Source: a virus
Direction: 5' to 3' (one strand)
UHGV virus genome: UHGV-0092096
Length of the DNA stretch: 58,999 nt
Shown piece by piece: positions 14,731 to 55,021 of the stretch (positions are counted from its first letter, which is position 1; each line of letters opens with the position of its first letter). The notes beneath the pieces are model-generated. The model searched no databases. It had not been told where the DNA came from and saw nothing but the letters and a program-made list of their open reading frames with translations. The translations under genes and the position numbers were made by a program.

Positions 14731-15480
14731 TCACGCTGCCTGCTCAATCACCGGAACATAGCCATGTTTTTTCAATTCTTCGTAAAGAAATAGGCGACCT
14801 TTCTGTGACCATTCAGTCTGCATTGCAACATCAGGTCTTCCATCAGTCCTTGTAATATCAATCGTCCGGCTGTGAACATATCCATTATTTTGATATTTGG
14901 AATATAGAACCCATTGACCACCGACCTTGTATTGAATTTTTAATTCCTTAAGAATCTGATTAAACTTTCTTCCACTCATTCCGTAGTCTTTTGCAATCTG
15001 CGTGATAGTTACCAGCGACTTCGATTGAAGAATCTTGTCTACATAATTTGCTTTTGGCTGCAATTCAGTGATAATCTGCTGCTGTTCAATAACCTGATCT
15101 CCAAGAAATTTGCATCTGTCTTTCAGGGATTCGATTGACTGACTTGCCATCTTGAGCGCCCTAGCCATAATCTGCTCTGGTGTGTTCCAGGCTTTTTCCA
15201 AGTCCAAGAAATATTGTCTGATTTCTTTTCCTTCCGGTGTTCTCTGAATCATGCAAATCTGTTTTGCCATATCAATGGAAATGTCATACTCTGTTGAAGG
15301 TCTACCTCCTGTACTTTCAGACATTTTTGTCCAAAAGTCTTTTCCAGCTTCAAAACCGTAATCACACATTCTGTCTATCCACTTCTTAAATGGTGTTTCA
15401 ATATGAAGCTGTTCATGCAATTCTCTTGCCGATACTGTTGGTTCCTCTGTTTCAAAATTGATTTTTAGTAATTCGTTCAT
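14731..15480 (-). CDS. Phage antirepressor (N-terminal domain plus KilA-C/ANT C-terminal domain)
   Basis: C-terminal ITQIAKDYGMSGRKFNQILKELKIQYKVGGQWVLYSKY matches the antirepressor KilAC domain. Confidence 0.65.
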   Translation of the reverse strand: MNELLKINFETEEPTVSARELHEQLHIETPFKKWIDRMCDYGFEAGKDFWTKMSESTGGRPSTEYDISIDMAKQICMIQRTPEGKEIRQYFLDLEKAWNTPEQIMARALKMASQSIESLKDRCKFLGDQVIEQQQIITELQPKANYVDKILQSKSLVTITQIAKDYGMSGRKFNQILKELKIQYKVGGQWVLYSKYQNNGYVHSRTIDITRTDGRPDVAMQTEWSQKGRLFLYEELKKHGYVPVIEQAA

Positions 15481-15553
15481 CCTGCATCGCCTTTCTAAAT
15501 ATATTTTTCTGTGTTATAATCTCCTTAAATTGATATAAGGAGGTGAATTTGAA

Positions 15554-16258: not shown

Positions 16259-16287
16259 TTGAACTTTTATTCAAATAGTGTTATATT
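16259..16287 (+). promoter_or_regulatory. Promoter for the cI-like gene (TTGAAC-17-TGtTATATT) overlapping operator O3 (TTGAACttttatTCAAA)
   Basis: -35/-10 elements spaced 17 bp; an operator half-site overlaps the -35 box. Confidence 0.45.
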
Positions 16288-16312
16288 ATTTATCGGAAAG
16301 GAGGTGTTACAA

Positions 16313-16708
16313 ATGAAAATAAGCAGTTCTTCTATTAGATTAAAAGAAATAATGGAAAAACAAAATTTAAAGCAAATTGATATACTGAATAAAACATTGC
16401 CATTTTGCGAAAAATATAACGTAAAAATGAACAAGTCTAATATAAGCCAATATGTTTCCGGCAAAGTTGAGCCGAGTCAAGATAAAATTATGGTATTATC
16501 AATGGCTCTTGGAGTAAGTGAAGGATGGCTGATGGGATTTGATGATGAAACAAAAGAGTATTCAGAAGGTAAAGCTAAGGTTTCAAAAGAAATCGCTGAA
16601 GAAGATTTTGAATTTTATAACAAACTCTCTTTATTGAATAAAGAGGAACAAGAAATAATTATGAATTTAATAAATTATATGCTATCGCATAAAAAGAGCG
16701 AGGACTAA
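16313..16708 (+). CDS. CI-like XRE-family HTH repressor
   Basis: N-terminal HTH (NISQYVSGKVEPSQDKIMVLSMALGVSEGWLMG). RBS GGAAAGGAGGTG. Opposite strand to the lytic genes. Confidence 0.65.
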   Translation: MKISSSSIRLKEIMEKQNLKQIDILNKTLPFCEKYNVKMNKSNISQYVSGKVEPSQDKIMVLSMALGVSEGWLMGFDDETKEYSEGKAKVSKEIAEEDFEFYNKLSLLNKEEQEIIMNLINYMLSHKKSED

Positions 16709-17080: not shown

Positions 17081-17281
17081 GTGTTTGCCCTCCGTTTTTA
17101 AAATTTGTTTTTATTATAGCGGAAACGGGGGAAAAAGTACTTACTAAAATTTTTATAATTATGCATTAAATTTTTTATTCGCATCCGTGAAAAATAGACG
17201 TAAAATATTATGTCTTTATTTTTTTGGATTGGACACACAATTTTTTGGTTGCGAAATGGCAAAAAGGAGGTAAAATTTTTT

Positions 17282-17902
17282 ATGTCATCTGAGATTGAAA
17301 GAGCACAGAATTTTGGCAACATGCTTGCAAAATCAAGAACAGATGCCGGAAAAACAAGAAAGCAAATGGCTCAAGCTCTCGGAAAGTCAGTCACTACAAT
17401 TCAGAACTGGGAATCCGGAATAGGTGAGCCTGGTTACAGAACACTTGAGAAATGGTTTTCGGTGCTAGGATTAAACATGGAAAAGTACATTCTCAGCTAC
17501 CGATACCCGGACAAATTCTTAACTATTGAAAAAGATACAGAAATCGAAAAGATGGTTGACTGTATTCATGCTTACATAAACGCAAACTACACTGAGCGAG
17601 ATATTCGTCAAATGGCTTACTGTATGTTCGGAGATACTGGTTCCTCATGGCACGAGCAATTAAATATGCTGACAGCTAACAATCACTGCTCTATGCGGTC
17701 GAGAGTGAATATCTGTCAAGCTGTTTACGACAACTTCCTTATGGAAAAGGCAAGAGGTGAGCTTGCCAATGAAGATAATATAATGCCTGACCTTGCTTCT
17801 TTGAATATTGCTTTGCAAAGAGGTCGTGAAGCCGCATGCGAAAGTAAGAACGGTTACACAATGACTGGTCAAACAAGAAAGAATAACAATAAAAAGAAAT
17901 AA
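17282..17902 (+). CDS. HTH (XRE-type) DNA-binding protein with C-terminal domain of unknown function; second lysogeny-strand regulator
   Basis: HTH segment RKQMAQALGKSVTTIQNWESG. RBS AAAAAGGAGGT. No S24 peptidase motif. Confidence 0.5.
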   Translation: MSSEIERAQNFGNMLAKSRTDAGKTRKQMAQALGKSVTTIQNWESGIGEPGYRTLEKWFSVLGLNMEKYILSYRYPDKFLTIEKDTEIEKMVDCIHAYINANYTERDIRQMAYCMFGDTGSSWHEQLNMLTANNHCSMRSRVNICQAVYDNFLMEKARGELANEDNIMPDLASLNIALQRGREAACESKNGYTMTGQTRKNNNKKK

Positions 17903-36157: not shown

Positions 36158-36400
36158 CTATCCTAATTTCTGCCAACTCTTTGTCTCAGAGTTGAATTTG
36201 TATAATTCCGATGTGTCTAACATCAAACAGGAACTTCCTGCATCTACATAAGTCGGGAGCTTATCAACATCTTTTGACTGAGCTTCATAGCTTCTAACAT
36301 TTCCCGATGCTTCGGTACAAACAATGCTCCCCATATCCGGCACATCTGTTCCCGGAGGATACGTCTGTCCGTCTTGTTTTACTGTGTAGTTGTATTTCAT
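36158..36400 (-). CDS. Hypothetical small protein
   Basis: ORF in chain. Confidence 0.4.
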   Translation of the reverse strand: MKYNYTVKQDGQTYPPGTDVPDMGSIVCTEASGNVRSYEAQSKDVDKLPTYVDAGSSCLMLDTSELYKFNSETKSWQKLG

Positions 36401-37866
36401 TTTGTTACCTCCGGCGTTTTGTTGCCATTCAAATTCTGATTGTTTCCTAGTTTTTGATTCTGATTAGAATTATCATCTATCTGATTTTGCTTATTTTCAT
36501 CATCAGAAGTCTTGTAAAGCACATCCAGATAAGGCTTGGACAGAATGTAAGCTTTTTCACTATCCGGGAATAATGTGCTAAGCTCATATGCAAGTTTCGG
36601 ATGAGTGCCGTCTTTCAACAGGTAGTCCAGAAACTGTGCCTTTACTAGCATATTATCCATAGGGCTGTGATTAATAATCACTTCAAACTGGCTCGTATCA
36701 ATAGGACATTCATTTTTCCCTTTTCTTACACGAATAATATTCAAGATAACTTCATTCAGTCTTTGTTCTGACTCTTGAATAATCGGGTCTTTCAGTTTTC
36801 CTCTCGTCTTAGCCATATCCCATCCGTTGCGGAGTTGTACCGCCCCTTGAGTGTCACCACCTGTGTTTCCTTCAAGTTTAGGAATGGCAAGAATCTGTAG
36901 GATATTATCCAGCAAGTCTTGTTTTGCAACCTGTGACTGAGTTTGATTTAGCTCCTGTGTCATAATATCAACATCAGCCTTATTGTCAGTACCATTGTTT
37001 GATTTAACAACAAGAGCACCTTCCATTTTCATCTGTTGGAATGTCTCATGGTCAACTGTACAGTTTACAAATTTTACCCAAGCACTAACAAACTGTTCAA
37101 TGCTGTCCATTCTGTTTGACTGCATATTGTTAATTGCATCAAACATGGATGCTACAAGCTCAATATCAGAAATTCTCTCAAAATTGTTTGGGTATTCAAC
37201 AATAGGGATTCCACCAAACGCATGTACACCCCATTGTTCAACTTTTCCGTCTTTGATAATGCATTGGTTCGTTTTCGTGTGGCATGACTTATACCATTCA
37301 CCGTTCAAGTCCTTTAATTCTTGAACGGAAACAAGCGGTTCTTCCGTAATAGATGAATAAATGATGTAAGTATTCATGGGAGTTGGAACTGTAATTCTGA
37401 ACGGCATTTTTTCTCCAGGTTTTTCAAACTGAGCAGCTAAAAAAGCTGTTCCAGTTGCCGACTGCCACTCACCAGCTCTGATATTTCTAGCATGTTTATG
37501 AGCACGTCTAAAATAATTATTGAGCACGTCAACATATTCGCTGATATTTTCCTTTACAATACTCACGCACTGCAACGGTTCTCCATATGACTGTCCAACT
37601 TTAAACTGAACTGCTTCATAAGCGTGATTCTCTACTACTTTGTTTACCACATCATCTCTGATCGTCTTTGTACGGTACAGAATCGGTTGATCTCCTTTGT
37701 AGTAGTCCCACAAATATTTAGTAACTTGTTTGTTAAAGTAAAAGATTCCAAGTGTTTCTCCTACAACTTCCAAAATATTGCTTTGATCAACCTCTTCGAC
37801 ATTCGCATATGCAATTTTTCTTCCGTATTTGCCTTTTACAAGGTCTTGTAGAGTATTCTTGTTCAT
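36397..37866 (-). CDS. Portal protein
   Basis: A 489-aa protein immediately downstream of the terminase region; SPP1-like arrangement. Confidence 0.6.
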   Translation of the reverse strand: MNKNTLQDLVKGKYGRKIAYANVEEVDQSNILEVVGETLGIFYFNKQVTKYLWDYYKGDQPILYRTKTIRDDVVNKVVENHAYEAVQFKVGQSYGEPLQCVSIVKENISEYVDVLNNYFRRAHKHARNIRAGEWQSATGTAFLAAQFEKPGEKMPFRITVPTPMNTYIIYSSITEEPLVSVQELKDLNGEWYKSCHTKTNQCIIKDGKVEQWGVHAFGGIPIVEYPNNFERISDIELVASMFDAINNMQSNRMDSIEQFVSAWVKFVNCTVDHETFQQMKMEGALVVKSNNGTDNKADVDIMTQELNQTQSQVAKQDLLDNILQILAIPKLEGNTGGDTQGAVQLRNGWDMAKTRGKLKDPIIQESEQRLNEVILNIIRVRKGKNECPIDTSQFEVIINHSPMDNMLVKAQFLDYLLKDGTHPKLAYELSTLFPDSEKAYILSKPYLDVLYKTSDDENKQNQIDDNSNQNQKLGNNQNLNGNKTPEVTK

Positions 37867-37875
37867 TTCTTCACC

Positions 37876-38073
37876 TTAAATCAAAAAAGTCATTCCGCTA
37901 CTGCAATTTCTAATTGGCAGTGACTTCCTGACTGTTTCTCCCGTTGCTACTTTGAAAATAATCTTTTTGTTACACTTCTTGCATCGACATACTTTGTCGA
38001 TTTTTCCTTTTCCGTCATAAGTGCCAACTTTCCTGTTGCACTTCGGACAATAAATTGTTTGTTCTTTTACCAT
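37876..38073 (-). CDS. Small zinc-ribbon protein
   Basis: CPKCN...CRCKKCN motifs. Start placed at the MVKEQ ATG. Upstream in-frame codons lie inside the terminator hairpin of leader copy 3. Confidence 0.4.
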   Translation of the reverse strand: MVKEQTIYCPKCNRKVGTYDGKGKIDKVCRCKKCNKKIIFKVATGETVRKSLPIRNCSSGMTFLI

Positions 38074-38086
38074 GTTTTTCACCAAT

Positions 38087-38195
38087 AAAAAATGCACCTG
38101 GTTCGTCATTCCAAGTGCATCTTTGAGAAAGGATTATGAGAATTTTTATGTATCCTCAAGTTGTATTTCTTCGATTATTATTATAACACGTCAAG
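38087..38195 (-). promoter_or_regulatory. Promoter-leader-terminator cassette copy 3: TGTGTTATAAT promoter, ~85-nt leader, hairpin TGCACTTGG/CCAGGTGCA plus U6
   Basis: Same extended -10 box as copies 1 and 2, a GAATG start motif, and a GGTGAAAAACATGG RBS context. See findings. Confidence 0.5.
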
Positions 38196-38248: not shown

Positions 38249-38671
38249 TTACAGATAGTAAGAGCCGAAAAGCTTCTCAAACTCTTGTAGTGCTCTTCCA
38301 TGGATTGACATCGCACCTCTAAACGAGCATTCCATTTCCGAAGTGATCGTTTTCCAGTTTTTGCACAAGACATATCTGTTGTACAGTACTCTGTACTGAT
38401 TTGTGTTTGTAATCATCTCAATCTGTTGAGTGATTTCCCTCTTTTTTTGAAAAGAATGCTCAATAGATTCCGCAAGCTCTACTTCTGCATCAGCAATTTT
38501 AGAGACAAGGCTTCCCATTTTGTCAGGTTCTCCGCTGCTCTGAACATTAACCTCTTTTAGAGACACAGAAATAGAACAAGCCATATCTCTCAACTGATTA
38601 ATTTCTTCAACTTTGTTTTTGATTATAAAATCTAACTTTGAAATCTGTCCTAAATATGTTTTTGTATCCAT
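38249..38671 (-). CDS. ArpU/RinA-type (sigma region-4-like) late transcription regulator
   Basis: C-terminal TITSEMECSFRGAMSIHGRALQEF resembles a sigma-70 region 4 HTH. Confidence 0.45.
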   Translation of the reverse strand: MDTKTYLGQISKLDFIIKNKVEEINQLRDMACSISVSLKEVNVQSSGEPDKMGSLVSKIADAEVELAESIEHSFQKKREITQQIEMITNTNQYRVLYNRYVLCKNWKTITSEMECSFRGAMSIHGRALQEFEKLFGSYYL

Positions 38672-40416
38672 TATCTGTATCCCCCTCTAAACGGATTGTG
38701 TACCGCTTCGACTCTTGGTGGTTCCCATGTTCCCTCAATAAAATATGCAAGCGACGCAAGGCAGTCAGGAGAGTCTTCGTGCTTGTTTTTCCCCTTAATG
38801 GTAAAAGAGTACAGATTCCTCATAAAGTTCCTATATTCTTGATTTCTGAACCCAGTATCGCGAAAATAGAACTCACGTATAGAACCAGCTTTGTCCCAAA
38901 TTCTCTGGCTTTTTCTCATTGATGTAGGTGCATATTGAGAGACAAGAGTTACCTTATGTCCTTTTTCTCTCAGCATTTCGTCTACTTCGTCTTTGTATCC
39001 TTCTCCACCTTGGTTTGACTCAAAATACACACTTCCTATATTGTGATCAATAATCATATTCACAACTTTTGGCTTTGTGATTTTCTTTTCTGAATTATCA
39101 AAAATGACATCATCAATGTATATGGACCCGTCTTCGTACATGTAAGCCACAGCAAATGCCAAGTAGTCTTCACCTCCGAGAGCCACATCACATGCAGCGC
39201 AAATTCTATATGGTTCTTGAGCTGGGAGCACTCCATTGTAGAATCTCATGTGTTCTTGATTGAATACAGCTCCGTCCCTTTCAATAGGTTCCTGCTGGCA
39301 CTGTGCATACCATCCGGCCATATCATCGTTTTCTTCAAATTTTGCACGTTTGATCCTATAGAATTTTGTTGAAAATCCAACTCCATAGTCATAATCAAAG
39401 TTACTTTCATCTGTAACTGGATCAAGTGCTGGAATCTTCAAAATATCATACCTGATATCTTTTGCCTCTGGATTGTTCTCTAAGAAATCCAATCTGTCCA
39501 TGTAGATATCTTTCAGACTCCAAATTGTACCGTTATAGATTATTTTGCATTTCTCTTTCTTACGTGTCATTACGTTGTTGTCAAAGATAGTCTGCTTTCT
39601 TTTGAGAACATCTGGGTTTAAAACATCCTGAATACCCTCGATAATGTCATCAACAATTAGCCATCCATACGCATCGTATTCGCCGTTAAGTCCGGATGTA
39701 AGTCCTTTTCCGGAAAGAGATTTATATTTTTTCTTTCTTCCTAAATCAACCTTATTGTTTTTTAAGTCAGTATCTTTGATAATTCCTTTTGGGAACACCT
39801 CTTTAAAGCAATAAGTCGGGTCAGTCCATATTTCCATAACTCCATCAAGGAACGCGCTTCCAAGGCCCTCTTTGTATGTTACGTACAAATTGCTTGCTTC
39901 CATATCTCTAGCGCATTTCCATGAAGTCGCGAGCGTAAGTTCTTGGCTTTTACCAACACGGGCCGGCATATGAACAAACAGTTCATCCAATAAATCGTCT
40001 TCAAGCATCTGAATCTTGTCAGTTACCAATTTCAGTGTTTTTCTTCTCGGCTCGTAGAATCTGTCTCTTCGTTTTCTGTTTTTTTCCACATACAGCATAT
40101 AGCTGTCAAGAATTTCCTGTGCTTCTATTTTCAAAATCTTATAATACTGATTAATCAAATCAAACTCTGTCTTATTCTGCTGTGCATAATCTTCAAGCCA
40201 CGCAAAATCTCCACCGTTTGTCTGTTTTTTTATGATTTGATTGACAATCTGCTTTGCTCTATCAGAAACTTGCAATCCGTACTTTATGTCTTTCTCTTGC
40301 TCAAATGCAGTCTGAACCGCAAGGATGTACGCATCAAGCACCTGTTCGTCAATACCTTTACGCTCTATGTAATTTTCATACCCTTTTACGGTTTTAATCA
40401 AATAATCGCTCGCCAT
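38671..40416 (-). CDS. Terminase large subunit
   Basis: Walker A-like HMPARVGKSQ ATPase block and a C-terminal nuclease region with acidic residues (DSPDCLASLAY). Confidence 0.85.
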   Translation of the reverse strand: MASDYLIKTVKGYENYIERKGIDEQVLDAYILAVQTAFEQEKDIKYGLQVSDRAKQIVNQIIKKQTNGGDFAWLEDYAQQNKTEFDLINQYYKILKIEAQEILDSYMLYVEKNRKRRDRFYEPRRKTLKLVTDKIQMLEDDLLDELFVHMPARVGKSQELTLATSWKCARDMEASNLYVTYKEGLGSAFLDGVMEIWTDPTYCFKEVFPKGIIKDTDLKNNKVDLGRKKKYKSLSGKGLTSGLNGEYDAYGWLIVDDIIEGIQDVLNPDVLKRKQTIFDNNVMTRKKEKCKIIYNGTIWSLKDIYMDRLDFLENNPEAKDIRYDILKIPALDPVTDESNFDYDYGVGFSTKFYRIKRAKFEENDDMAGWYAQCQQEPIERDGAVFNQEHMRFYNGVLPAQEPYRICAACDVALGGEDYLAFAVAYMYEDGSIYIDDVIFDNSEKKITKPKVVNMIIDHNIGSVYFESNQGGEGYKDEVDEMLREKGHKVTLVSQYAPTSMRKSQRIWDKAGSIREFYFRDTGFRNQEYRNFMRNLYSFTIKGKNKHEDSPDCLASLAYFIEGTWEPPRVEAVHNPFRGGYR

Positions 40417-41403: not shown

Positions 41404-41475
41404 CAAGCGTAACTGGAATCGAACCAGTACATCAGGAGTCAAAGTCCTGTGCTCTACCATTAAGCTATTACGCCC
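41404..41475 (-). tRNA. tRNA-Gln (anticodon UUG) with atypical acceptor/D-arm junction
   Basis: Minus strand shows D-arm GCTTAATGGTAGAGC, anticodon stem CAGGA/TCCTG with loop CUUUGAC, and a T-arm ACTGG-TTCGATT-CCAGT. The acceptor pairing needs G-U pairs or one extra nucleotide. Confidence 0.5.
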
Positions 41476-41479
41476 TTAG

Positions 41480-42205
41480 CTGCAAGAAATTTACCTCGAA
41501 AGCCGTAAGGAATTCTTGCACTGCTACGGTTCTTTATAATATTGGAGTTTATTATATGATCGATAAACCACGTCTTTTATTAACAAAACGTTAGTTTCCG
41601 AGTTTCAGCGAACTCCGCAGCTAAAACACTGATTGAATTTTAATTCAAACATGATTAGGGTTTCCCCTTATTCAATCATGGTAAAAGTCATATTCTGCCA
41701 CTGTGATGATAGGTCTGAGCTTCTGAGAGCGACTCTTGGCTTCCTACCACTGTCTAAGCACACATAGGATTGATACCCATAAATTTCACGGTTCTTTCAG
41801 AAGAATATGTTTTGCATCAATGGATTTCATTTCCACTGCAATATCTTATCAAAACTTGCCATACCGCTACTTTAACGAATTTCTTGTGTTATACCCTGAT
41901 TTCTCAGGCTCAAGGCAAATCAGCTTATTGAGAATTTCCATCTCTGTTGGTGGTCTCTCACACCACGAACTAAATGGATTATTTCTGCACCGCAGACGTC
42001 TATTAATCACTGACCACAAGGATTCTGCATTTGACTTCTCTATGATGATACACTGCAAGGCATTGTTGACGGTTTCCGTCTTCACCAATGGAATCACTCC
42101 TAGTGGAAAGAATCAGCTTATCCAATATCTCGAACAAGCCTATCTCGTTACCATTGCATCTCGGCATGACTGAAAAATCACTCTTCACCGAGATAATCAT
42201 GTTTG
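41480..42205. ncRNA. About 720 bp of hairpin-rich non-coding sequence between tRNAs; candidate large structured ncRNA (ROOL/GOLLD class?)
   Basis: No credible ORF in any frame. Many local hairpins (e.g. GTGGTctctcacACCAC). Bounded by tRNA genes inside a prophage. Confidence 0.3.
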
Positions 42206-42207
42206 AA

Positions 42208-42287
42208 TTTCCGTATAAGGAGTCGAACCTCAATCTTTCGTCCGGGTAGGGTAAGAACGAACGCTTTACCAATTAAGCTATACGGCT
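42208..42287 (-). tRNA. Aberrant tRNA-like gene (80 nt): canonical D- and T-arms but a 15-nt anticodon loop and two acceptor mismatches; possible pseudo-tRNA
   Basis: D-arm TAGCTTAATTGGTAAAGC and T-arm TGAGG-TTCGACT-CCTTA are present. The anticodon stem TTCGT/ACGAA encloses TCTTACCCTACCCGG. Confidence 0.35.
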
Positions 42288-42350
42288 TCCAGCTACACTG
42301 TAGCAAGGAAAGTAAGTTATGAAAAAGTTTTTTCTCCGAAACTCGGAGAG

Positions 42351-42424
42351 AGCTACCGTTCGGATTCGAACCGAAAACCTGTTGATTCGTAATCAACTGC
42401 TCTATCCATTTGAGCTATGATAGC
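42351..42424 (-). tRNA. tRNA-Arg (anticodon ACG)
   Basis: Acceptor GCTATCA/CGGTAGC (6 of 7 bp), D-arm GCTC-AAATGGATA-GAGC, anticodon arm GTTGA-TTACGAA-TCAAC, T-arm TTCGG-TTCGAAT-CCGAA. Confidence 0.7.
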
Positions 42425-46046: not shown

Positions 46047-46727
46047 TCAATCGTTTTCCTCGATCTGTGGCGTTAGATCCTGTCCGAGCTGTGGCAATTG
46101 GTCAGCGGTCAGTGGTCTTGTCTCCACTTTCTCTCGGCTAACTCCTGGAAGGTTCCACATATGATGCCTGTTAAGCGATGGCAGCACCTTCATGGGATTA
46201 ATGCGTTTATCTTGCAGCATTGACTCAAGAGACTGCTCGTTATCATCCATTATTCTTTTGGCAAGGTCTGTACGTTTTCGACTAAGTATAATACTATCGC
46301 TCCCACTATTATGGTGTTTAATATTATATTTACTGTCTCTGTTCCAGTCGTATAGAGTCTGTTTAGTAATGCCTGTCATGTCCAGGAATCCTTTGATATT
46401 GACAACCTGGCAATGCCTGTTGCAGATTCTCTTGTAGATGTCATAAGCATCCATTACTTTCTCGTCGTTGTATTCTGTCCCAATCTTTCCATCAATCCAG
46501 AGCAGATTGCCGTTCTTCTCGAACAGTGTCACTCTGATCTCCTCGATTATGTCATTCCAGATCTGTGGTGGAATATCTGATTCGTCAAGATCATCTCTAA
46601 TGCAGTAATCAGTGATCACGTCATCGACTAAGGCTCTGAGGTTGACCGGATCAACTTCAACACTTTCAACACTGTTCACTGTCTCAGCTTCTACTCTCTC
46701 TGTTTTCTGTGTTCTTCTCTTAGCCAT
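46047..46727 (-). CDS. HTH DNA-binding protein; candidate terminase small subunit
   Basis: Internal HTH (MTGITKQTLYDWNRD). First gene after leader copy 1. Separated from terL by the tRNA/moron island. Confidence 0.35.
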   Translation of the reverse strand: MAKRRTQKTERVEAETVNSVESVEVDPVNLRALVDDVITDYCIRDDLDESDIPPQIWNDIIEEIRVTLFEKNGNLLWIDGKIGTEYNDEKVMDAYDIYKRICNRHCQVVNIKGFLDMTGITKQTLYDWNRDSKYNIKHHNSGSDSIILSRKRTDLAKRIMDDNEQSLESMLQDKRINPMKVLPSLNRHHMWNLPGVSREKVETRPLTADQLPQLGQDLTPQIEEND

Positions 46728-46910
46728 TGTTTTTCACCTCCGCATTATCAAATAATCTATAAACAAAAAAGCCTAGACACACCGAGATATTAAACAGCTC
46801 ATTGTCTGTTATTTTCTCGATATGCCTAGGCTGACGATTCCTAGCTCTTTTCGATCCAGCTCCCATTCGGCTTTCACGGATTTCTTGTCGCTGATGCTAT
46901 TATAACACAA
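46720..46910 (-). promoter_or_regulatory. Promoter-leader-terminator-uORF cassette copy 1 (upstream of terS-like gene)
   Basis: TTGCAA-17-TGTGTTATAAT promoter (-10 at 46899-46904). ~130-nt leader. Hairpin AGCCTAG(46770-76)/CTAGGCT(46826-32) plus U6. A 48-aa uORF from ATG 46866 reads through the hairpin and its TAA overlaps the terS ATG. Confidence 0.55.
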
Positions 46911-46962
46911 CGAAAATCTGTTTGCAATAGTGTCGAGTAAATTAATTTTAAATTTTTATCAA

Positions 46963-47015
46963 GGCGTGTGCGTCCGTGTATGTGCGTGCTCGTCTGTGCG
47001 CTGGCGTGTCCGTGT
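46963..47015. repeat. GC-rich alternating purine-pyrimidine GTGCGT/CGTGT tract; Z-DNA-prone
   Basis: ggcgtgtgcgtccgtgtatgtgcgtgctcgtctgtgcgctggcgtgtccgtg sits within an AT-rich 830-bp intergenic region. Confidence 0.7.
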
Positions 47016-47249
47016 TTTGATAATCAGGACGATCAATGCCCTGTTCTGTTGGCTGTGGTTGTCTCTTCCGGCCGTTGTTCGTTTCTTGTCTGATCGATTT
47101 GTTTTTACATCGATTTTGGGGAGGTACACAGTCGGTGTTTTCTCAAAACCCGACCTTTTTAAAACTATAGACTGAACGTAGTGAAGGATATAGTTTTGAA
47201 AAGTAATATATATAATATTATAAATTATTTAGTAAGTCGATTATTAGGG

Positions 47250-47281
47250 CTGTATCCATTCTGTATCCAATCTGTATACAA
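47250..47281. repeat. Three direct repeats CTGTATCCA / CTGTATCCA / CTGTATACA (11-12 bp period); candidate protein-binding iterons
   Basis: tgtatccatt ctgtatccaa tctgtataca. Confidence 0.6.
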
Positions 47282-47436
47282 ATAGCATAATAATTTGCAC
47301 AGCGTAACATTTGTGAAATCACTGTTTGCCCTTGCGTTTACTGGCTTTATTGACATTTGTTAAATATTTATCGTAACAATTTGTTAACACTTTTGTAACC
47401 CTACTTGCCCTGTTAGTTTGAACTAACAACTATTTT

Positions 47437-47477
47437 TAAAAAAATAGAGCAGGAATGACCATTTCTTGCTCTTTTTG
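47437..47477. terminator. Bidirectional intrinsic terminator (AGAGCAGG...CTTGCTCT with A7 and T5 tracts). It is preceded by palindrome GTTAGTT-tg-AACTAAC (47412-47427)
   Basis: Hairpin flanked by AAAAAAA upstream and TTTTT downstream. Confidence 0.45.
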
Positions 47478-47564
47478 CTGTGATGTGTTATGATTTTCTT
47501 TACTGGAGAGCGGTGGCAAGTTCCGCCCTCTCTTGTGTGTCTGAGTCGCTTTGTGCGGCTCTTT

Positions 47565-47720
47565 TTTAGTCGTTTTCCTTTGTCCTTGCTACTGTATCCA
47601 GAAGCTTGAGAATCTCTTCTTTTGTGTACGTTTCCTTTGTGTCTGCATCAATCAGCAGTCGAATTTCATAGATCATCGCTGCTCTTGCGTCTTTTCTCTC
47701 TTTCTCGTTCATAACGTCCA
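47565..47720 (-). CDS. Hypothetical small protein (51 aa)
   Basis: RBS GGAGAAAGGAGAAAAC then ATG. Encodes MDVMNEKERKDARAAMIYEIRLLIDADTKE.... Confidence 0.4.
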
Positions 47721-47777
47721 TGTTTTCTCCTTTCTCCGTCTTGCCACGGCAACTCGTAAGTATCTCTTACAAGTATT

Positions 47778-47805
47778 ATTATATCACTTTATAAAGTTAT
47801 GTCAA
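47778..47805 (-). promoter_or_regulatory. Consensus sigma-A promoter (TTGACA-16-TGaTATAAT)
   Basis: Minus strand reads TTGACATAACTTTATAAAGTGATATAAT, directly after the XRE stop and upstream of the small ORF. Confidence 0.5.
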
Positions 47806-47810
47806 TGCCT

Positions 47811-48050
47811 TTAAAATAATTCTTGTTTTTTCTTTTCTTCGTCTTCTGTCTCTTCATATATAAGGATGTCTTTTGGCTGTAAATCAAGAATCATGCAGAT
47901 AGAATTTAACGCCCCGAGTGTTATATTTGTTTCTTCATTTTTAATCTTTCTTAACGTGTCTTGGCTTAATAATCCTGTCTTTTTTGCTTTGTATGTCGTG
48001 AATCCAGCTCTTTCCAGTGCATCCCCCACATTGAATTTGTACTTAAGCAT
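47811..48050 (-). CDS. XRE-family HTH regulator
   Basis: GLLSQDTLRKIKNEETNITLGALNSICMILDLQPKDIL. Divergent from the plus-strand cassette. Confidence 0.65.
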   Translation of the reverse strand: MLKYKFNVGDALERAGFTTYKAKKTGLLSQDTLRKIKNEETNITLGALNSICMILDLQPKDILIYEETEDEEKKKQELF

Positions 48051-48137: not shown

Positions 48138-48166
48138 TTGACAGTAACTTTTAAAAGTGATATATT
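48138..48166 (+). promoter_or_regulatory. Sigma-A promoter (TTGACA-17-TGaTATATT) driving the plus-strand two-gene cassette
   Basis: ttgacagtaacttttaaaagtgatatatt. Confidence 0.5.
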
Positions 48167-48213
48167 ATAACCATAGCAAAGAACAAAACAAACACTCAAG
48201 GGAGGATACAAAA

Positions 48214-48729
48214 ATGACAAATAGAGATTTATCACAGGCAATCAGAAAAGATTTAAAAGGACACGGATTTACAAGTAAGGATGTATCTGTAAGAGTCCGC
48301 GATGCGCTCTATGATACATCAGTTAATATCACTATCAAGAATCCCCTTGTCAGAGAATCAGACATTGAGAATATTGTGAAGAAATATAGCAAAATTGACT
48401 ATGACCAAAGATCAATGGAGATTTTAGCCGGATGTAACATATACGTTCATTGTGAATATGCTTACGGGATTTTTGATGATGTAGCAGCTCCACTTATTCC
48501 AATAGCTGAAAAAGTGTTTAACAATGAAAAATACGATGGTAAGAAGATCGCAGAAAATGAAAAAATTGAAATTCACATGATTAAGTTCAGCAACGTGGAA
48601 AGCCGTTTGTATGAATTTGATAAGAGTAAGAGACAGCAAAACACAATTGGCGGCTACATCGTGAGAAGTCCGAAAAGCTTAGCAATCGCAATGTGGAGAT
48701 TTAAGAATTTAAAAACAATATATGCTTAA
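48214..48729 (+). CDS. Hypothetical protein (172 aa), first gene of the plus-strand cassette
   Basis: RBS GGGAGGATACAAAAATG. No recognisable domain. Translationally linked to the downstream ATPase. Confidence 0.5.
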   Translation: MTNRDLSQAIRKDLKGHGFTSKDVSVRVRDALYDTSVNITIKNPLVRESDIENIVKKYSKIDYDQRSMEILAGCNIYVHCEYAYGIFDDVAAPLIPIAEKVFNNEKYDGKKIAENEKIEIHMIKFSNVESRLYEFDKSKRQQNTIGGYIVRSPKSLAIAMWRFKNLKTIYA

Positions 48730-48757
48730 ACGAAAGATTTATAGGGAGGTTGGCACC

Positions 48758-49519
48758 ATGAAAGCACAGAGAAATTGGATCACACCAGAGGGAAAGAGTT
48801 TTATCGATTATGAAAACATGATGGCGCAGCCACACTTGTTAGTGGCTGGAGCTACTGGATCAGGAAAATCGGTTGTAATTAATGGAATTATCACAACAGC
48901 ACTATTCGAAGCACCGTCGCAAGTACAGTTCATTCTTATCGACCCGAAAAGGGTTGAACTCGTAGACTATAGATATCTTCCGCATACGGCGTTCTATGCA
49001 TCCGAACCGGCTGAGATGGTCAGAGGATTACATATGGCTATGAATATCATTGAAATGAGATACAAGCAGATGCAGAGCGCACACGTAAAGAAATACCAGG
49101 GGGCGCAGTTATATGTGATCATTGACGAATTAGCGGACTTAATGACCACGAACAAAAAACAGGTAATGCCACTTATCCAACGTATAGCACAAATAGGACG
49201 TGCCGCCGGTGTTCATCTGATCTGTGCGACTCAGTGCCCACTTGCCAAGGTAATCCCAACAGAAATCAAGGTCAACTTTGATGCCCGTGTGGGACTGCGT
49301 ACGAGGTCAGCACAGGACAGCAGAAATATATTAGGCTTTAACGGTTGCGAGGATTTACCGCGCTATGGACAGGCATATTATATGAATCCTGATAGTGGAG
49401 TAAAAAAAATAGTTGTTCCGATGTATGACAATGGCGAAACATGGCGTTTGATTAATCACTGGATGCAGCAGCGCCCACCGAAAAAGAAAGGATTCTTTGA
49501 AAGATTGTTTGGAATGTAA
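48758..49519 (+). CDS. Soluble FtsK/SpoIIIE-family DNA translocase ATPase domain protein
   Basis: Walker A LLVAGATGSGKSV, FILIDPKRVEL, Walker B LYVIIDELADLM, and the IAQIGRAAGVHLICATQCP motif. No TM or gamma domain. RBS AGGGAGGTTGG. Confidence 0.8.
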   Translation: MKAQRNWITPEGKSFIDYENMMAQPHLLVAGATGSGKSVVINGIITTALFEAPSQVQFILIDPKRVELVDYRYLPHTAFYASEPAEMVRGLHMAMNIIEMRYKQMQSAHVKKYQGAQLYVIIDELADLMTTNKKQVMPLIQRIAQIGRAAGVHLICATQCPLAKVIPTEIKVNFDARVGLRTRSAQDSRNILGFNGCEDLPRYGQAYYMNPDSGVKKIVVPMYDNGETWRLINHWMQQRPPKKKGFFERLFGM

Positions 49520-51140: not shown

Positions 51141-51392
51141 TTATTTGCAGAAATTGTTCAGCAATTCTTCTTTTAACTCCATCTTCCCGGCTCTAAAACC
51201 GAGCTTGAAAGCGTAAATCAGTGCTTTTGTCTTCCCCATCTCCACTTTGTCGGCAATCGCAATCAATGGGAACAGGTCTTCCGCAAAGTAATCTGTAACC
51301 ACACTGTCGCTGATCGGGCGAATTTTCTCTTCAATATTATTCAGCGTGCTTCTCATATCGCTGACTTTTAATTTAATCTTCCTTACTACCAT
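51141..51392 (-). CDS. Hypothetical protein
   Basis: ORF in chain. Confidence 0.4.
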   Translation of the reverse strand: MVVRKIKLKVSDMRSTLNNIEEKIRPISDSVVTDYFAEDLFPLIAIADKVEMGKTKALIYAFKLGFRAGKMELKEELLNNFCK

Positions 51393-52065
51393 TCTTTTTC
51401 TCCTCTCTATGTTCTACCTTTAATTCGTAAAGGCCGTCAATCACGGTTTTTGCACGTTCAGCCATGTCAGGGAAGAAGTCAAATAAATCTAATTTGCTTT
51501 CAAGTCTCTTTCCTGTCCCCATAATATATCTGATTTCTGCTTCCTCAAGGTCGAATTTTTCTTCAATGTAAGGAAATATAAGCTCAAACAAAAATTTTTC
51601 TTCTACACCGTAGCTGCTACAAATAGCTGCTATTTTATATCTGTTTTTTCTGTAGAACGTCACTGGTTTAGGTGCCGGGATGCTAGATACCTTCGGTCTC
51701 TGCGGAATTTCTGCCACTTCTCTCACTCTGAAATAGGTATTCACAAGTCTTCTCTGAACATTCCACGACAATTCATCTTTGAATGTCTTAACAATCATCA
51801 GATAACCGCTTTCAGTCAAATAAGTGACTCCCTTTGGTGGGATTTCTCCAATGTGGTTATTAGCCACATTGAAATCTTCTCTTGTGATAACGAAATAATC
51901 TTCATTTTCCAAGAAGTGAGATTTGTTCTTATAGAAGTTATTTCTAGCAGTTCCAGACTTTCTCTGGTGAACTTCATCAATGTCCTTGAAAGTAACTACT
52001 CTCTGTCCTTTGTATTCTCTGATCGGTAATGCTATTTCACTTACTGCTAAATTTTCTTTTGCCAT
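51373..52065 (-). CDS. ORF6N-domain phage protein (antirepressor-related)
   Basis: RVVTFKDIDEVHQRKSGTARNNFYKNK...FLENEDYF...ESGYLMIV matches the ORF6N/KilA-N-type domain. Start at MAKEN with a GGAGG RBS. Confidence 0.5.
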   Translation of the reverse strand: MAKENLAVSEIALPIREYKGQRVVTFKDIDEVHQRKSGTARNNFYKNKSHFLENEDYFVITREDFNVANNHIGEIPPKGVTYLTESGYLMIVKTFKDELSWNVQRRLVNTYFRVREVAEIPQRPKVSSIPAPKPVTFYRKNRYKIAAICSSYGVEEKFLFELIFPYIEEKFDLEEAEIRYIMGTGKRLESKLDLFDFFPDMAERAKTVIDGLYELKVEHREEKKNGSKED

Positions 52066-52086
52066 CTTCTTAACCTCCATAGCAAA

Positions 52087-53580: not shown

Positions 53581-54288
53581 TTATGCAGCCATATCAAACA
53601 AACCTAAGATAAACTTTCTTCCAAGCTGGGTTATTCTTCTGTAATAAATCACACGACCGCTATCAAGGGTTTCTTGCTTTATAGACTCATATCCAAGATC
53701 GCTATAATCGGAATACATAACCCATGTTCCATTTGACTTATACTGAATCTTCTTTTCAGCCAGAATCTTATTCAGTTCGTTTGCACTTTTCAGACCGATC
53801 TCTTTCGCAATTTCTGTCATGGTATATGTTTTGTTGACATGCATAAGGATAGCGTTTGTCTTTTCCGCTTCAATTCTTGCTGCTCTTTCTTCTTTCAGTT
53901 TGGTCAGAAGCTCAATACCGAAGTCCGGGTTGTTCAAGATATTATCAATAACGTTATCTGTTGCGTAGATTCCGTTCTTTCGGATGCATGGGAGGACTTC
54001 ATCCGTGACCCAGTGTTTGAAATTTTCAGCTGACTTCAATTTACTACCAAAAATCAGTGTGTAAACACCTGACTCATTGATTACTGTCACGTCTCTTTTC
54101 TGACCTGCACTGTCAATTTGGCAGACCAGCTTATCGCTATCCATTACGTGTTTCTTCAATGCTCCATATGTATCTGCGTACCCTAAAGCAACAGCTACGT
54201 CCTTTCCAACAATCCATGGCTTTCCATTTATTACAACTGTTCTGATTTCTCCGAATTCCTCATTTTTAAATACGCTTAATTCATTCAT
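53581..54288 (-). CDS. Phage antirepressor (Bro-N plus KilA-C/ANT domains)
   Basis: N-terminal FGEIRTVVINGKPWIVGKDVAVALGY (Bro-N). C-terminal ANELNKILAEKKIQYKSNGTWVMYSDYS (KilAC). Confidence 0.7.
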   Translation of the reverse strand: MNELSVFKNEEFGEIRTVVINGKPWIVGKDVAVALGYADTYGALKKHVMDSDKLVCQIDSAGQKRDVTVINESGVYTLIFGSKLKSAENFKHWVTDEVLPCIRKNGIYATDNVIDNILNNPDFGIELLTKLKEERAARIEAEKTNAILMHVNKTYTMTEIAKEIGLKSANELNKILAEKKIQYKSNGTWVMYSDYSDLGYESIKQETLDSGRVIYYRRITQLGRKFILGLFDMAA

Positions 54289-54690
54289 TTTTTCTTCTCC
54301 TTTTCATAAAAACGTTGGTTTTTCCAAAAGGATGTGCTATTATAATTTAGTAAGCATCCTTTTAGATTGGTTGTTTTAAGAGTTGTTCGCTTTGGTAGGT
54401 TAGCAACTCTTATTTTTTTGTCAGAAATAGCAGAGCCTAACTCAATAGACTCTGCTACGTTTAATTCGTAACCAGCCGCATCACTGGTCGGTATTCCGTT
54501 TTTCGTATCCAGCACCATCACTGGAGTATATGAGAGAAATAAAAAAGCCTGAGTACGCTGAAAGCAAAGACAGTATTTTTTACTATCCTTGTTCTCAGTA
54601 TACTCAGGCTGACGATTCCTGACCCTTGTTGATCTGAATCCCATTCGTTCTTCACATATTTCTCGTCGCTGATATTATTATAACACAAAT
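54285..54690 (-). promoter_or_regulatory. Promoter-leader-terminator-uORF cassette copy 2 (upstream of antirepressor gene)
   Basis: TGTGTTATAAT (-10 at 54677-54682). ~134-nt leader. Hairpin AGCCTGAGTA(54546-55)/TACTCAGGCT(54601-10) plus U6. The uORF (track ORF 54285..54644, MGFRSTRVRNRQPEY...) crosses the hairpin and its TGA overlaps the antirepressor ATG. Confidence 0.55.
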
Positions 54691-54694
54691 GGAA

Positions 54695-55021
54695 TTAATA
54701 AACAATACGAGCAAGCAAAATATTTTCAATCAAATCAGTCAATGAAATAATTTCTCTCGCATGGTCTGAGATGAAATTGCAGAGTCGTTCCTCTGTTTCT
54801 ATAGGAAGAGAAATTCCGTAGGTCATGCAAACAGCGTGAGTCAGCTCATGGGAAAGAACGCGGTCAAACATGGTATCTGAGAGACAGTTAGACAGATAGA
54901 TTGTATTGGTCATTCTGTCAGTAACTCCTAGCGTGTAAACACCGTCTGACCGTCTCAGTAGCTCGCTGGATGGATTTTCATATTGTACATGCCATAATTC
55001 ATCATTGATATAGAAATTCAT
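54695..55021 (-). CDS. ImmA/IrrE-family metallopeptidase domain protein
   Basis: HEXXH motif (LSHELTHAV) in a ~108-aa protein, typical of the ImmA-like domain. Confidence 0.5.
   Translation of the reverse strand: MNFYINDELWHVQYENPSSELLRRSDGVYTLGVTDRMTNTIYLSNCLSDTMFDRVLSHELTHAVCMTYGISLPIETEERLCNFISDHAREIISLTDLIENILLARIVY

Follow-up and report, generated by a model that had tools for sequence, protein, structure and literature searches.

What is the role of a promoter that is followed almost at once by a structured leader and an intrinsic terminator, in front of a phage gene? The question is raised by two loci on the minus strand of the UHGV virus genome UHGV-0092096, of which we analyzed the whole stretch of 58,999 nt (hereafter the window), a ~59-kb temperate siphophage-like genome as judged from its gene content in Pfam and PHROG scans. 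One of the loci (copy 1) precedes a terS-like gene and the other (copy 2) precedes an antirepressor-type gene. A sequence-only reading of the window had described both, together with a third locus upstream of the portal gene, as copies of a single cassette in which an upstream open reading frame (uORF) is translated through the terminator hairpin. Based on comparisons with related phages, we lean, by a modest degree, toward the view that copies 1 and 2 represent a previously undescribed family of cis-acting leader RNAs, namely transcription attenuators that gate antirepressor-type and late genes.

Two homologous leaders and their relatives

The two loci comprise the following features:

46899-46927, minus: predicted promoter of leader copy 1 (type 1), with -35 TTGCAA, a 17-nt spacer and the TG-extended -10 TGTGTTATAAT (10/12 match with TG)
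46765-46898, minus: leader RNA copy 1 (type 1), 134 nt; 159.9 bits with the covariance model, fold z = -4.3
46765-46832, minus: predicted intrinsic terminator of copy 1, a 63-nt hairpin (46832-46770; -33.8 kcal/mol) and a U6 tract (46770-46765)
46047-46727, minus: terS-like gene, 226 amino acids, the first gene downstream of leader copy 1
54677-54687, minus: TG-extended -10 element of leader copy 2 (type 2), with a weak -35 (TTGTTT)
54541-54676, minus: leader RNA copy 2 (type 2), 136 nt; 146.9 bits with the covariance model, fold z = -6.7
54546-54610, minus: predicted intrinsic terminator hairpin of copy 2 (54610-54546), with its U6 tract at 54546-54541
54289-54540, minus: second conserved non-coding leader, found by sequence comparison between the copy-2 terminator and the antirepressor-type gene
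53581-54288, minus: antirepressor-type gene downstream of leader copy 2, with Bro-N/KilAC domains (Pfam PF02498, 2.7e-25; PF03374, 5.3e-14)

The 11-mer TGTGTTATAAT is present exactly at 46909-46899 and 54687-54677 on the minus strand, and the promoters presumably fire at both leaders. An identical extended -10 element had been claimed for all three loci, which holds for copies 1 and 2, but the third locus carries CGTGTTATAAT, with one mismatch. One further exact TGTGTTATAAT lies on the plus strand (15510-15520), between an AntA/KilAC gene (14731-15480, minus) and plus-strand repressor-type genes with a helix-turn-helix (HTH) domain (16259-16708 and 17210-17902).

When the leaders are placed on common alignment columns (column c is position 46899 - c in copy 1 and 54677 - c in copy 2), the first 74 transcribed nt align without gaps. 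Identity is 74% in this 74-nt 5' domain, 52% in the terminator part and 64% overall, in agreement with the ~65% reported earlier, and copies 1 and 2 are true paralogues. The whole leaders fold at -42.2 (copy 1) and -48.4 kcal/mol (copy 2), with the z-scores listed above relative to shuffles. Each leader ends in a long GC-rich terminator hairpin (63–65 nt) followed by U6, so placed that a predicted intrinsic terminator (stable hairpin plus U tract) stands between the promoter and the downstream gene in both cases. The sequence-only reading had also pointed to compensatory differences between the two terminator stems, and seven pairs are indeed changed on both sides.

Exact-pattern scans of IMG/VR and metagenomes recovered about 100 near-unchanged copies, all on human-gut viral or metagenomic contigs, and this recurrence excludes chance as the origin of the two leaders. 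The scans (five of IMG/VR, one of a genome collection and one of metagenomes) yielded 17 type-1, 14 type-2, three type-3 and one type-4 sequence variants and only these four types, with types 1 and 2 usually found together in close relatives; the scan of the genome collection with the element patterns gave only chance matches and did not reveal the host. The leader itself is much better conserved than the DNA upstream of it: the minor-allele fraction in type 1 is 0.018 in the 5' domain vs. 0.30 in the upstream flank, and the DNA 3' of the type-2 U tract alternates between two unrelated versions, i.e., a mosaic junction directly follows the terminator.

The sequence-only reading had suggested that related phages be searched with a covariance model. 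We searched a model of the full element (R1) over 62 loci with relatives of the 226-amino-acid protein and 80 loci with Bro-N/KilAC relatives, and together with a model of the 5' domain (R2, containing the P2 hairpin and the antiterminator (AT) hairpin described below) the searches covered ~300 loci of related phages. The element is present in these relatives as types 1–4 and a distant type 5, and the model recovers copies 1 and 2, not the third locus. R1 finds type 3 at 92 bits, type 4 at 43 bits and type 5 (locus L195) at 42 bits, the last of which differs in its central domain and retains the 5' end, AT hairpin and terminator. No further types emerged from R2 or from a regular-expression search for the AT-plus-terminator arrangement. 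Weak covariance hits in L152, L097, L145 and L121 were rejected as coding regions.

As the sequence-only reading had supposed, the leaders match no named regulatory element in the databases searched. With Rfam 15, the whole window gave only the ROOL RNA and tRNAs at the gathering threshold, and both loci gave only spurious microRNA or long non-coding RNA hits far below threshold at E <= 10; blastn of both copies against 50,697 INPHARED phages returned no match. The class of mechanism is familiar, and the leader-RNA family itself is undescribed and narrowly distributed, being confined to a narrow clade of human-gut phages.

The genomic context of the element is consistent across its types. All five are co-oriented with a close downstream gene, and the types lie directly 3' of a TGnTAnAAT element with that gene 40–300 nt away. 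Types 2 and 3 are located after an ImmA-like gene and before a Bro-N/KilAC gene, type 5 also precedes a Bro-N/KilAC gene and type 4 precedes a Rha-like gene, while type 1 alone precedes the terS-like 226-amino-acid gene. In type-3 and type-4 phages the homologue of that gene has a different leader with the same layout (promoter, ~130–150 nt, long terminator and ribosome-binding site (RBS)). Therefore, the conserved association is with antirepressor-type genes, and the leader copy before the terS-like gene represents a lineage-specific duplication or replacement.

The third locus resembles the other two in layout:

38085-38190, minus: analogous cassette (copy 3), with promoter CGTGTTATAAT (38190-38180), a ~60-nt leader, a terminator (~38124-38088) plus U tract, and then a zinc-ribbon gene (ATG at 38073) and the portal gene

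It folds as a leader hairpin plus a terminator. However, alignment detected no homology to copies 1 and 2 and the covariance model gave no hit there, so that of the three loci said to share a cassette only copies 1 and 2 are homologues, and copy 3 is an analogous cassette and not a third copy. As had been noted, the ATG at 38109 shares its reading frame with the zinc-ribbon gene; the GAAUG that had been taken for a conserved leader motif is, in this locus, just a 5-mer in the terminator loop.

The layout itself (promoter, short structured leader, strong intrinsic terminator, gene) extends well beyond the family. A stable hairpin plus T tract precedes the start of the 226-amino-acid homologue by 23–48 nt in 36 of 43 distinct upstream regions, and a terminator lies 17–37 nt before the zinc-ribbon gene preceding the portal in all 45 distinct relatives (loci L074–L152), with terminator sequences at these two positions that are unrelated between lineages. 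This phage group thus consistently places terminators just before late genes and 3' of promoter-like elements, and since promoter-proximal terminators before terS-like and portal-proximal genes are universal in the clade, regulated readthrough would be its way of gating late genes.

In the second leader, downstream of copy 2, two CCAG-N8-CUGG hairpins are succeeded by a third hairpin, which covaries and has the conserved UAUUUCUG after it, and by additional hairpins up to the RBS. Its equivalents (L118:1790-1925, L155:1740-1990 and L195:1800-2000) include a compensatory change to UCAG...CUGA in L118, and it is kept also in relatives without a type 1–5 element; it has no Rfam hit.

A hairpin that excludes the terminator

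Within the 5' domain, two hairpins are conserved:

46852-46878, minus: P2 hairpin of copy 1 (columns 21–47; RNAalifold), with a 2-bp P2a, the internal loop UGAA/GGAU, the P2b stem and the apical loop CGAAUGGGA
54630-54656, minus: P2 hairpin of copy 2
46826-46844, minus: AT hairpin of copy 1 (columns 55–73), with CUAGG, the loop AAUCGUCAG and CCUAG; -3.7 kcal/mol
54604-54622, minus: AT hairpin of copy 2

In P2, both helices change in sequence among the four types while remaining paired: P2a reads CG/CG, UG/CA, CA/UG and CU/AG, and the upper stem P2b (3–4 bp) reads AGC/GCU, GAA/UUC, GGA/UCU and UGG/CCA. P2a is paired in 97.8% and P2b in 94.6% of cases, and all six pairs are changed on both sides. 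By contrast to the stems, the internal loop UGAA/GGAU is invariant, the apical loop is CGAAUGGGA in types 1 and 2 and CGAGUGAGA in type 3, and type 4 has an unrelated loop of 12 nt in its place.

The second hairpin follows the same pattern. Its stem (columns 55–59/69–73) is CUAGG/CCUAG, UCAGG/CCUGA or ACAGA/UCUGU across types, around an invariant loop of 9 nt (AAUCGUCAG). Of 115 cells (23 distinct sequences), 99.1% are paired and three of the five pairs are changed on both sides; this covariation score was reached by none of 500 shuffles, and when the partner strand was moved by 1–3 columns, pairing fell to at most 68%, with at most one cell showing a change on both sides. RNAalifold, applied to leaders cut before the 3' arm of the terminator, predicted exactly P2 and this second hairpin, with compensatory changes at 9 of 11 pairs. 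Likewise, in folds of the nascent leader up to column 74, columns 69–74 are sequestered in all four types.

The 3' strand of the second hairpin (columns 69–73) is also the start of the terminator 5' arm. Because these columns are common to both helices, the hairpin and the terminator are mutually exclusive, and because the hairpin shows covariation in all types and draws on the initial bases of the terminator stem, it is an antiterminator. The two structures differ greatly in stability, with -3.7 to -8.3 kcal/mol for AT hairpins vs. -25 to -39 kcal/mol for the terminators. Since the antiterminator is far weaker, we infer that termination is the default and that readthrough needs an effector to drive the switch.

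Two additional pairings may close the 5' domain. In the first (P1'), the 5' strand GACRA (columns 10–14) pairs with UCGUC of the AT loop in 89.6% of cases, with A-U changed to G-C in types 4 and 5. In the second (P0), the 5' end (columns 4–8) pairs with columns 70–74 in types 2–4 (74.8% paired overall). Among the registers compared for the closing helix, 10–14/62–66 fits types 4 and 5 better than the 8–11/62–65 given by RNAalifold, and neither is strongly supported.

Proposed attenuation and its rivals

Taken together, we propose that the leaders most likely act as on/off switches before the antirepressor-type gene and the packaging/late operon. Transcription would start at the TG-extended -10 promoter, and P2 and the AT hairpin would fold first, from the first ~74 nt. 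The far more stable terminator would then displace the weak AT hairpin, releasing an RNA of ~130 nt, and default termination would keep the downstream genes off: an antirepressor-type gene (Bro-N/KilAC or Rha) and, in the phage studied here, the terS-like gene at the head of the packaging/late operon as well. Readthrough would occur when a trans-acting effector stabilizes the AT conformer, possibly by binding the conserved loops or by way of the pseudoknot-like contact between GACRA in the 5' strand and UCGUC in the AT loop. In principle, a protein of the phage or the host, an RNA or a small ligand might fill the effector's role. The P2 hairpin and the conserved loops are candidates for a sensor. 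A more specific and, in our estimate, unlikely version is that the 5' domain (P2, UGAA/GGAU, the CGAAUGGGA loop and the pseudoknot between 5' strand and AT loop) senses a host-derived signal such as a metabolite, second messenger, tRNA or host protein, and thereby licenses the antirepressor and, here, the packaging/late operon.

Several points weigh against this model. The promoter and terminator at both leaders are predictions, and a 5-bp antiterminator could be displaced quickly by a terminator of 25–30 bp. The alternative pairing that uses part of the terminator stem is conserved in only ~4 independent lineages, so that the covariation statistics rest on few events and kinship alone can beat shuffles without structure; a type-2 variant, U55C (4 copies), breaks one AT pair; and support for the closing pairings is only moderate (P0, 74.8%; P1', 89.6%). 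With regard to an effector, the Pfam and PHROG scans found no Q, N, ANTAR or CAT domain among the ~50 window proteins scanned (~35 small open reading frames lay outside the scan), and, by presence/absence in 79 loci, none of the proteins within ±10 kb shows specific co-occurrence with the element. Finally, further hairpins with U-rich tails lie 3' of copy 2, which would be better suited to a processive mechanism than to a local switch.

The sequence-only reading had derived its own mechanism from the following feature:

46720-46866, minus: uORF of 48 codons claimed for copy 1; in our judgement not a gene

In that mechanism, a ribosome that starts at the AUG of GAAUGGGA translates through the terminator, melts the hairpin and couples to the downstream start. 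The initial observation is correct for this window, in which the ATG frames of both copies (46866-46720 in copy 1; open reading frame 54644-54285 in copy 2) extend through the hairpin without a stop and end at the start codon of the gene that follows, overlapping the ATG at 46727 and at 54288, respectively. However, of 26 distinct type-1 relatives, 24 have ATG at the proposed start and two have lost it, with ACG and ATA once each; type 3 has GTG at this place and type 4 lacks the codon; and no Shine-Dalgarno sequence precedes the proposed start in the distinct relatives compared. The frame ends after 35, 36, 39, 43 or 48 codons or is fused to the 226-amino-acid gene in type 1, and after 20 to 119 codons in type 2. 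These ends differ because indels and alternative downstream sequences are tolerated: one-nt indels occur in the spacer of 40 nt that separates the terminator from the terS-like start (equivalent to 46728-46764 of the window; e.g., in L061, L042 and L053), and the frame is shifted or fused in 5 of the 26 distinct relatives. The supposed start-codon motif GAAUGGGA is instead the apical loop of P2 on its covarying stem, the ATG of copy 1 being located at 46866-46864 within CGAAUGGGA. The N-termini of the two frames are alike, as had been claimed, but this likeness is explained by nucleotide conservation of a structured RNA, as the positions at which the copies differ are concentrated in helix arms, with neither a 3-nt periodicity nor a preference for third codon positions. 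Leader-peptide attenuation would entail a conserved start codon, RBS and frame, and such conservation was not found. Given the lost or changed AUG, the missing Shine-Dalgarno sequence, the variable stop and the changes in helix arms, neither a uORF encoding a small protein nor ribosome coupling is supported, and we consider ribosome-mediated attenuation extremely improbable; what stands of the earlier proposal is regulated readthrough, which is supported by the conserved competing hairpin. It is also very improbable that the conserved block is a DNA-level site (an operator, a pac/cos-associated or a recombination site) lying between promoter and terminator by chance. The sequence of the 5' 20 nt (ATCAGCGACRAGAAAT) is conserved and covaries little, CTAGG-N9-CCTAG is a DNA inverted repeat and copy 1 adjoins the terS-like gene, all of which would suit such a site; yet the half-sites change while complementarity is kept (CTAGG/CCTAG, TCAGG/CCTGA, ACAGA/TCTGT), which argues for RNA pairing rather than protein-DNA recognition, and the element is also found before antirepressor-type genes, which have no packaging role.

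Two other explanations retain the RNA and differ in what it does. The ~130-nt RNA might be the product of a trans-acting small RNA (sRNA) gene, pairing with phage or host mRNAs or sequestering a protein, either with its position being incidental or as a terminated leader with a dual function. This would agree with a module that is self-contained from promoter to U tract, with the mosaic junction right after the type-2 terminator, with a predicted terminator so strong that the short RNA would be the main product, and with the invariant stretches AGAAAU, AAAAGAG and AAUCGUCAG, all predicted to be unpaired; promoter and terminator are, by prediction, its own and would give a discrete short RNA, and phage late-leader transcripts that act as sRNAs provide a precedent (PMC7547250; PMC4825925). 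However, complementarity within the phage is not above background (the best runs are 11–12 nt with 2 G-U pairs, and there are many such), and the element is co-oriented with and near a downstream gene in all five types. Moreover, a terminated RNA would not select for complementarity of columns 55–59 to the terminator 5' arm, yet this pairing covaries in every type. We therefore regard a purely or partly trans-acting role as rather unlikely. Alternatively, the 5' domain might be a processive antitermination site that makes polymerase resist the adjacent terminator and further ones, a possibility we hold to be improbable. Such a site could be nut-like, with an RNA hairpin and a protein, put/EAR/canT-like, with RNA that by itself acts on RNA polymerase, or qut-like, with a DNA site and a sigma-dependent pause. 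It would account for two paralogous sites just 3' of two promoters, as in nutL/nutR and putL/putR, each with a hairpin of covarying stem and invariant loop, and for the terminator-like hairpins between copy 2 and its gene as well as the terminators inside the late region in all relatives. In addition, AGAAAT, invariant in types 1–3 at about +9 to +14, resembles a -10 hexamer (A2 and T6 present); this is a resemblance only, at a position counted from a predicted transcription start site, and such a hexamer in the initial transcribed sequence might cause polymerase to pause in a sigma-dependent manner. Firmicutes mobile elements offer known cases of processive antitermination by RNA (EAR, pLS20 conAn and Tn916 canT; PMC11658703), although canT is much larger, at 341–452 nt (PMC11658703). 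Against a processive site, the AT strand tracks the sequence of the adjacent terminator, for which such a mechanism has no need; phages of types 3 and 4 carry another leader before the terS-like operon; and neither an antiterminator protein family, among the ~50 proteins scanned, nor an Rfam match was found.

If attenuation holds true, an RNA-level gate, i.e., a terminator/antiterminator leader, would stand directly before the antirepressor-type genes of temperate gut phages, and little is known about the lysogeny/lysis decision in temperate phages of gut Firmicutes. In one lineage, the leader has apparently been duplicated before the packaging/late operon, which points to a shared trigger for de-repression and late expression, and the universal terminators before late genes make regulated antitermination appear to be a general strategy of the clade. 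If the sensor version were also true, a riboswitch-like RNA would set prophage induction and late-gene timing in abundant human-gut phages. In any case, the element is short, sharply defined and recurrent in human-gut metagenomes, and is a candidate for a new Rfam family.

Genomic setting and known systems

Other genes of the window relevant to the life cycle of the phage are as follows:

76-1458: serine recombinase
14731-15480, minus: antirepressor-type gene, AntA/KilAC
16259-16708, 17210-17902 and 47811-48050: CI/Cro-type HTH genes
36397-37866: SPP1-type portal
38671-40416: terL
51373-52080: antirepressor-type gene, ORF6N
54695-55021, minus: ImmA/IrrE-like metallopeptidase gene, directly upstream of leader copy 2

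The Pfam and PHROG scans further identified the replication genes SSB, G39P-like and PDDEXK and a GH25 lysin, and the TerL protein is at most 38% identical to that of any deposited phage. Three antirepressor-type genes (Bro-N/KilAC, ORF6N and AntA/KilAC) coexist in this one 59-kb phage, and the ImmA-like peptidase gene near copy 2 encodes only 108 amino acids, which is unusually short. The terS-like gene opens a same-strand block of tRNAs, the ROOL RNA, terL, portal and structural genes; the ROOL RNA (375.7 bits, full length) and three flanking tRNA genes are located at 41405-42424 (minus), between copy 1 and terL. Upstream of copy 1, a sigma-70-type promoter with TG (12/12; 47805-47778, minus) and a facing 11/12 promoter (48138-48166, plus) surround the small Cro/CI-type HTH gene. 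Beyond these promoters, the region 46930-47830 holds an open reading frame of 51 amino acids and then ~600 nt of mostly non-coding DNA, with an A/C-rich stretch (46960-47110) adjoining copy 1 upstream, and could have a role in control or contain a packaging site. A gene for an FtsK/SpoIIIE-like ATPase (265 amino acids) and its 190-amino-acid partner (48157-49519, plus) lie, on the opposite strand, between the genes of the antirepressor block and the leader of the late operon; they look like a moron or a defence-like insertion.

The leaders share features with several characterized systems. The comparison with lambda PR'-tR' made in the sequence-only reading is borne out at the level of layout by the clade-wide terminators before late genes, 3' of promoter-like elements. 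Like PR'-tR' (6S RNA)/Q, the leaders combine a strong-looking promoter with an intrinsic terminator within ~130–200 nt before the late/packaging operon of a temperate phage, a predicted arrangement that matches Q/qut, and the short terminated leader is the default product of PR'-tR' as it would be here. In Stx phages, the late leader also yields an sRNA by-product, StxS (PMC7547250). However, Q acts via a DNA site and a sigma-dependent pause, whereas the leaders here would act via an RNA hairpin that overlaps the terminator; no Q-type Pfam or PHROG hit was obtained in the scanned protein set; and the leader is found before an antirepressor-type gene as well.

Lambda nutL/nutR (boxA-boxB, recognized by N) and HK022 putL/putR are paired antitermination sites, one per promoter. 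As in the phage studied here, two paralogous RNA sites per genome lie 3' of a promoter and 5' of terminators, with a covarying stem and a conserved loop. The boxB of nut is a 5-bp stem with a GNRA-like pentaloop, and the N protein is arginine-rich. In contrast, the loops here are of 9 nt and not GNRA-like pentaloops, no boxA-like consensus is evident, and the leaders resemble these sites in neither sequence nor structure and have no Rfam hit; no search was aimed at N-like proteins. Moreover, the overlap between the hairpin here and the adjacent terminator suggests a local switch, and processive modification need not be involved; the host is Firmicutes-like. EAR of the Bacillus subtilis eps operon, conAn2 of pLS20 and canT of Tn916 are likewise cis-acting leader RNAs that let polymerase pass insulating terminators (PMC11658703), but these are processive and do not overlap a specific terminator, and the element here has no Rfam match.

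With regard to the downstream gene, the leaders are similar to the c4 RNA of P1/P7 (upstream of icd-ant), sar of P22 and IsrK of Gifsy-1, in all of which a small structured RNA lies immediately 5' of an antirepressor or anti-regulator gene on the same strand and a terminator sets short and long isoforms. c4 and sar act by base pairing with ant mRNA; by contrast, the search for complementarity here revealed none to the downstream leader or RBS, and there is no homology. Gifsy-1 IsrK provides a precedent for a terminated leader that is an sRNA (PMC4825925).

Finally, the RAT (BglG/SacY/LicT) and ANTAR leaders of Firmicutes differ from the element here in that their loop and internal-loop sequences are unrelated, in that the loops here are of 9 nt rather than hexaloops, and in that the genes under control here would be phage lifecycle genes; no ANTAR or CAT_RBD domain was detected in the phage proteins scanned. 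The RAT hairpin is bound by BglG/SacY/LicT, and ANTAR substrates are dual hexaloop hairpins. As in our model, these leaders form a short and weak antiterminator whose 3' strand is the terminator 5' arm, terminate by default and depend on a binding factor to tip the balance, and in ANTAR substrates it is the second of two hairpins that overlaps the terminator, as in the leaders described here.

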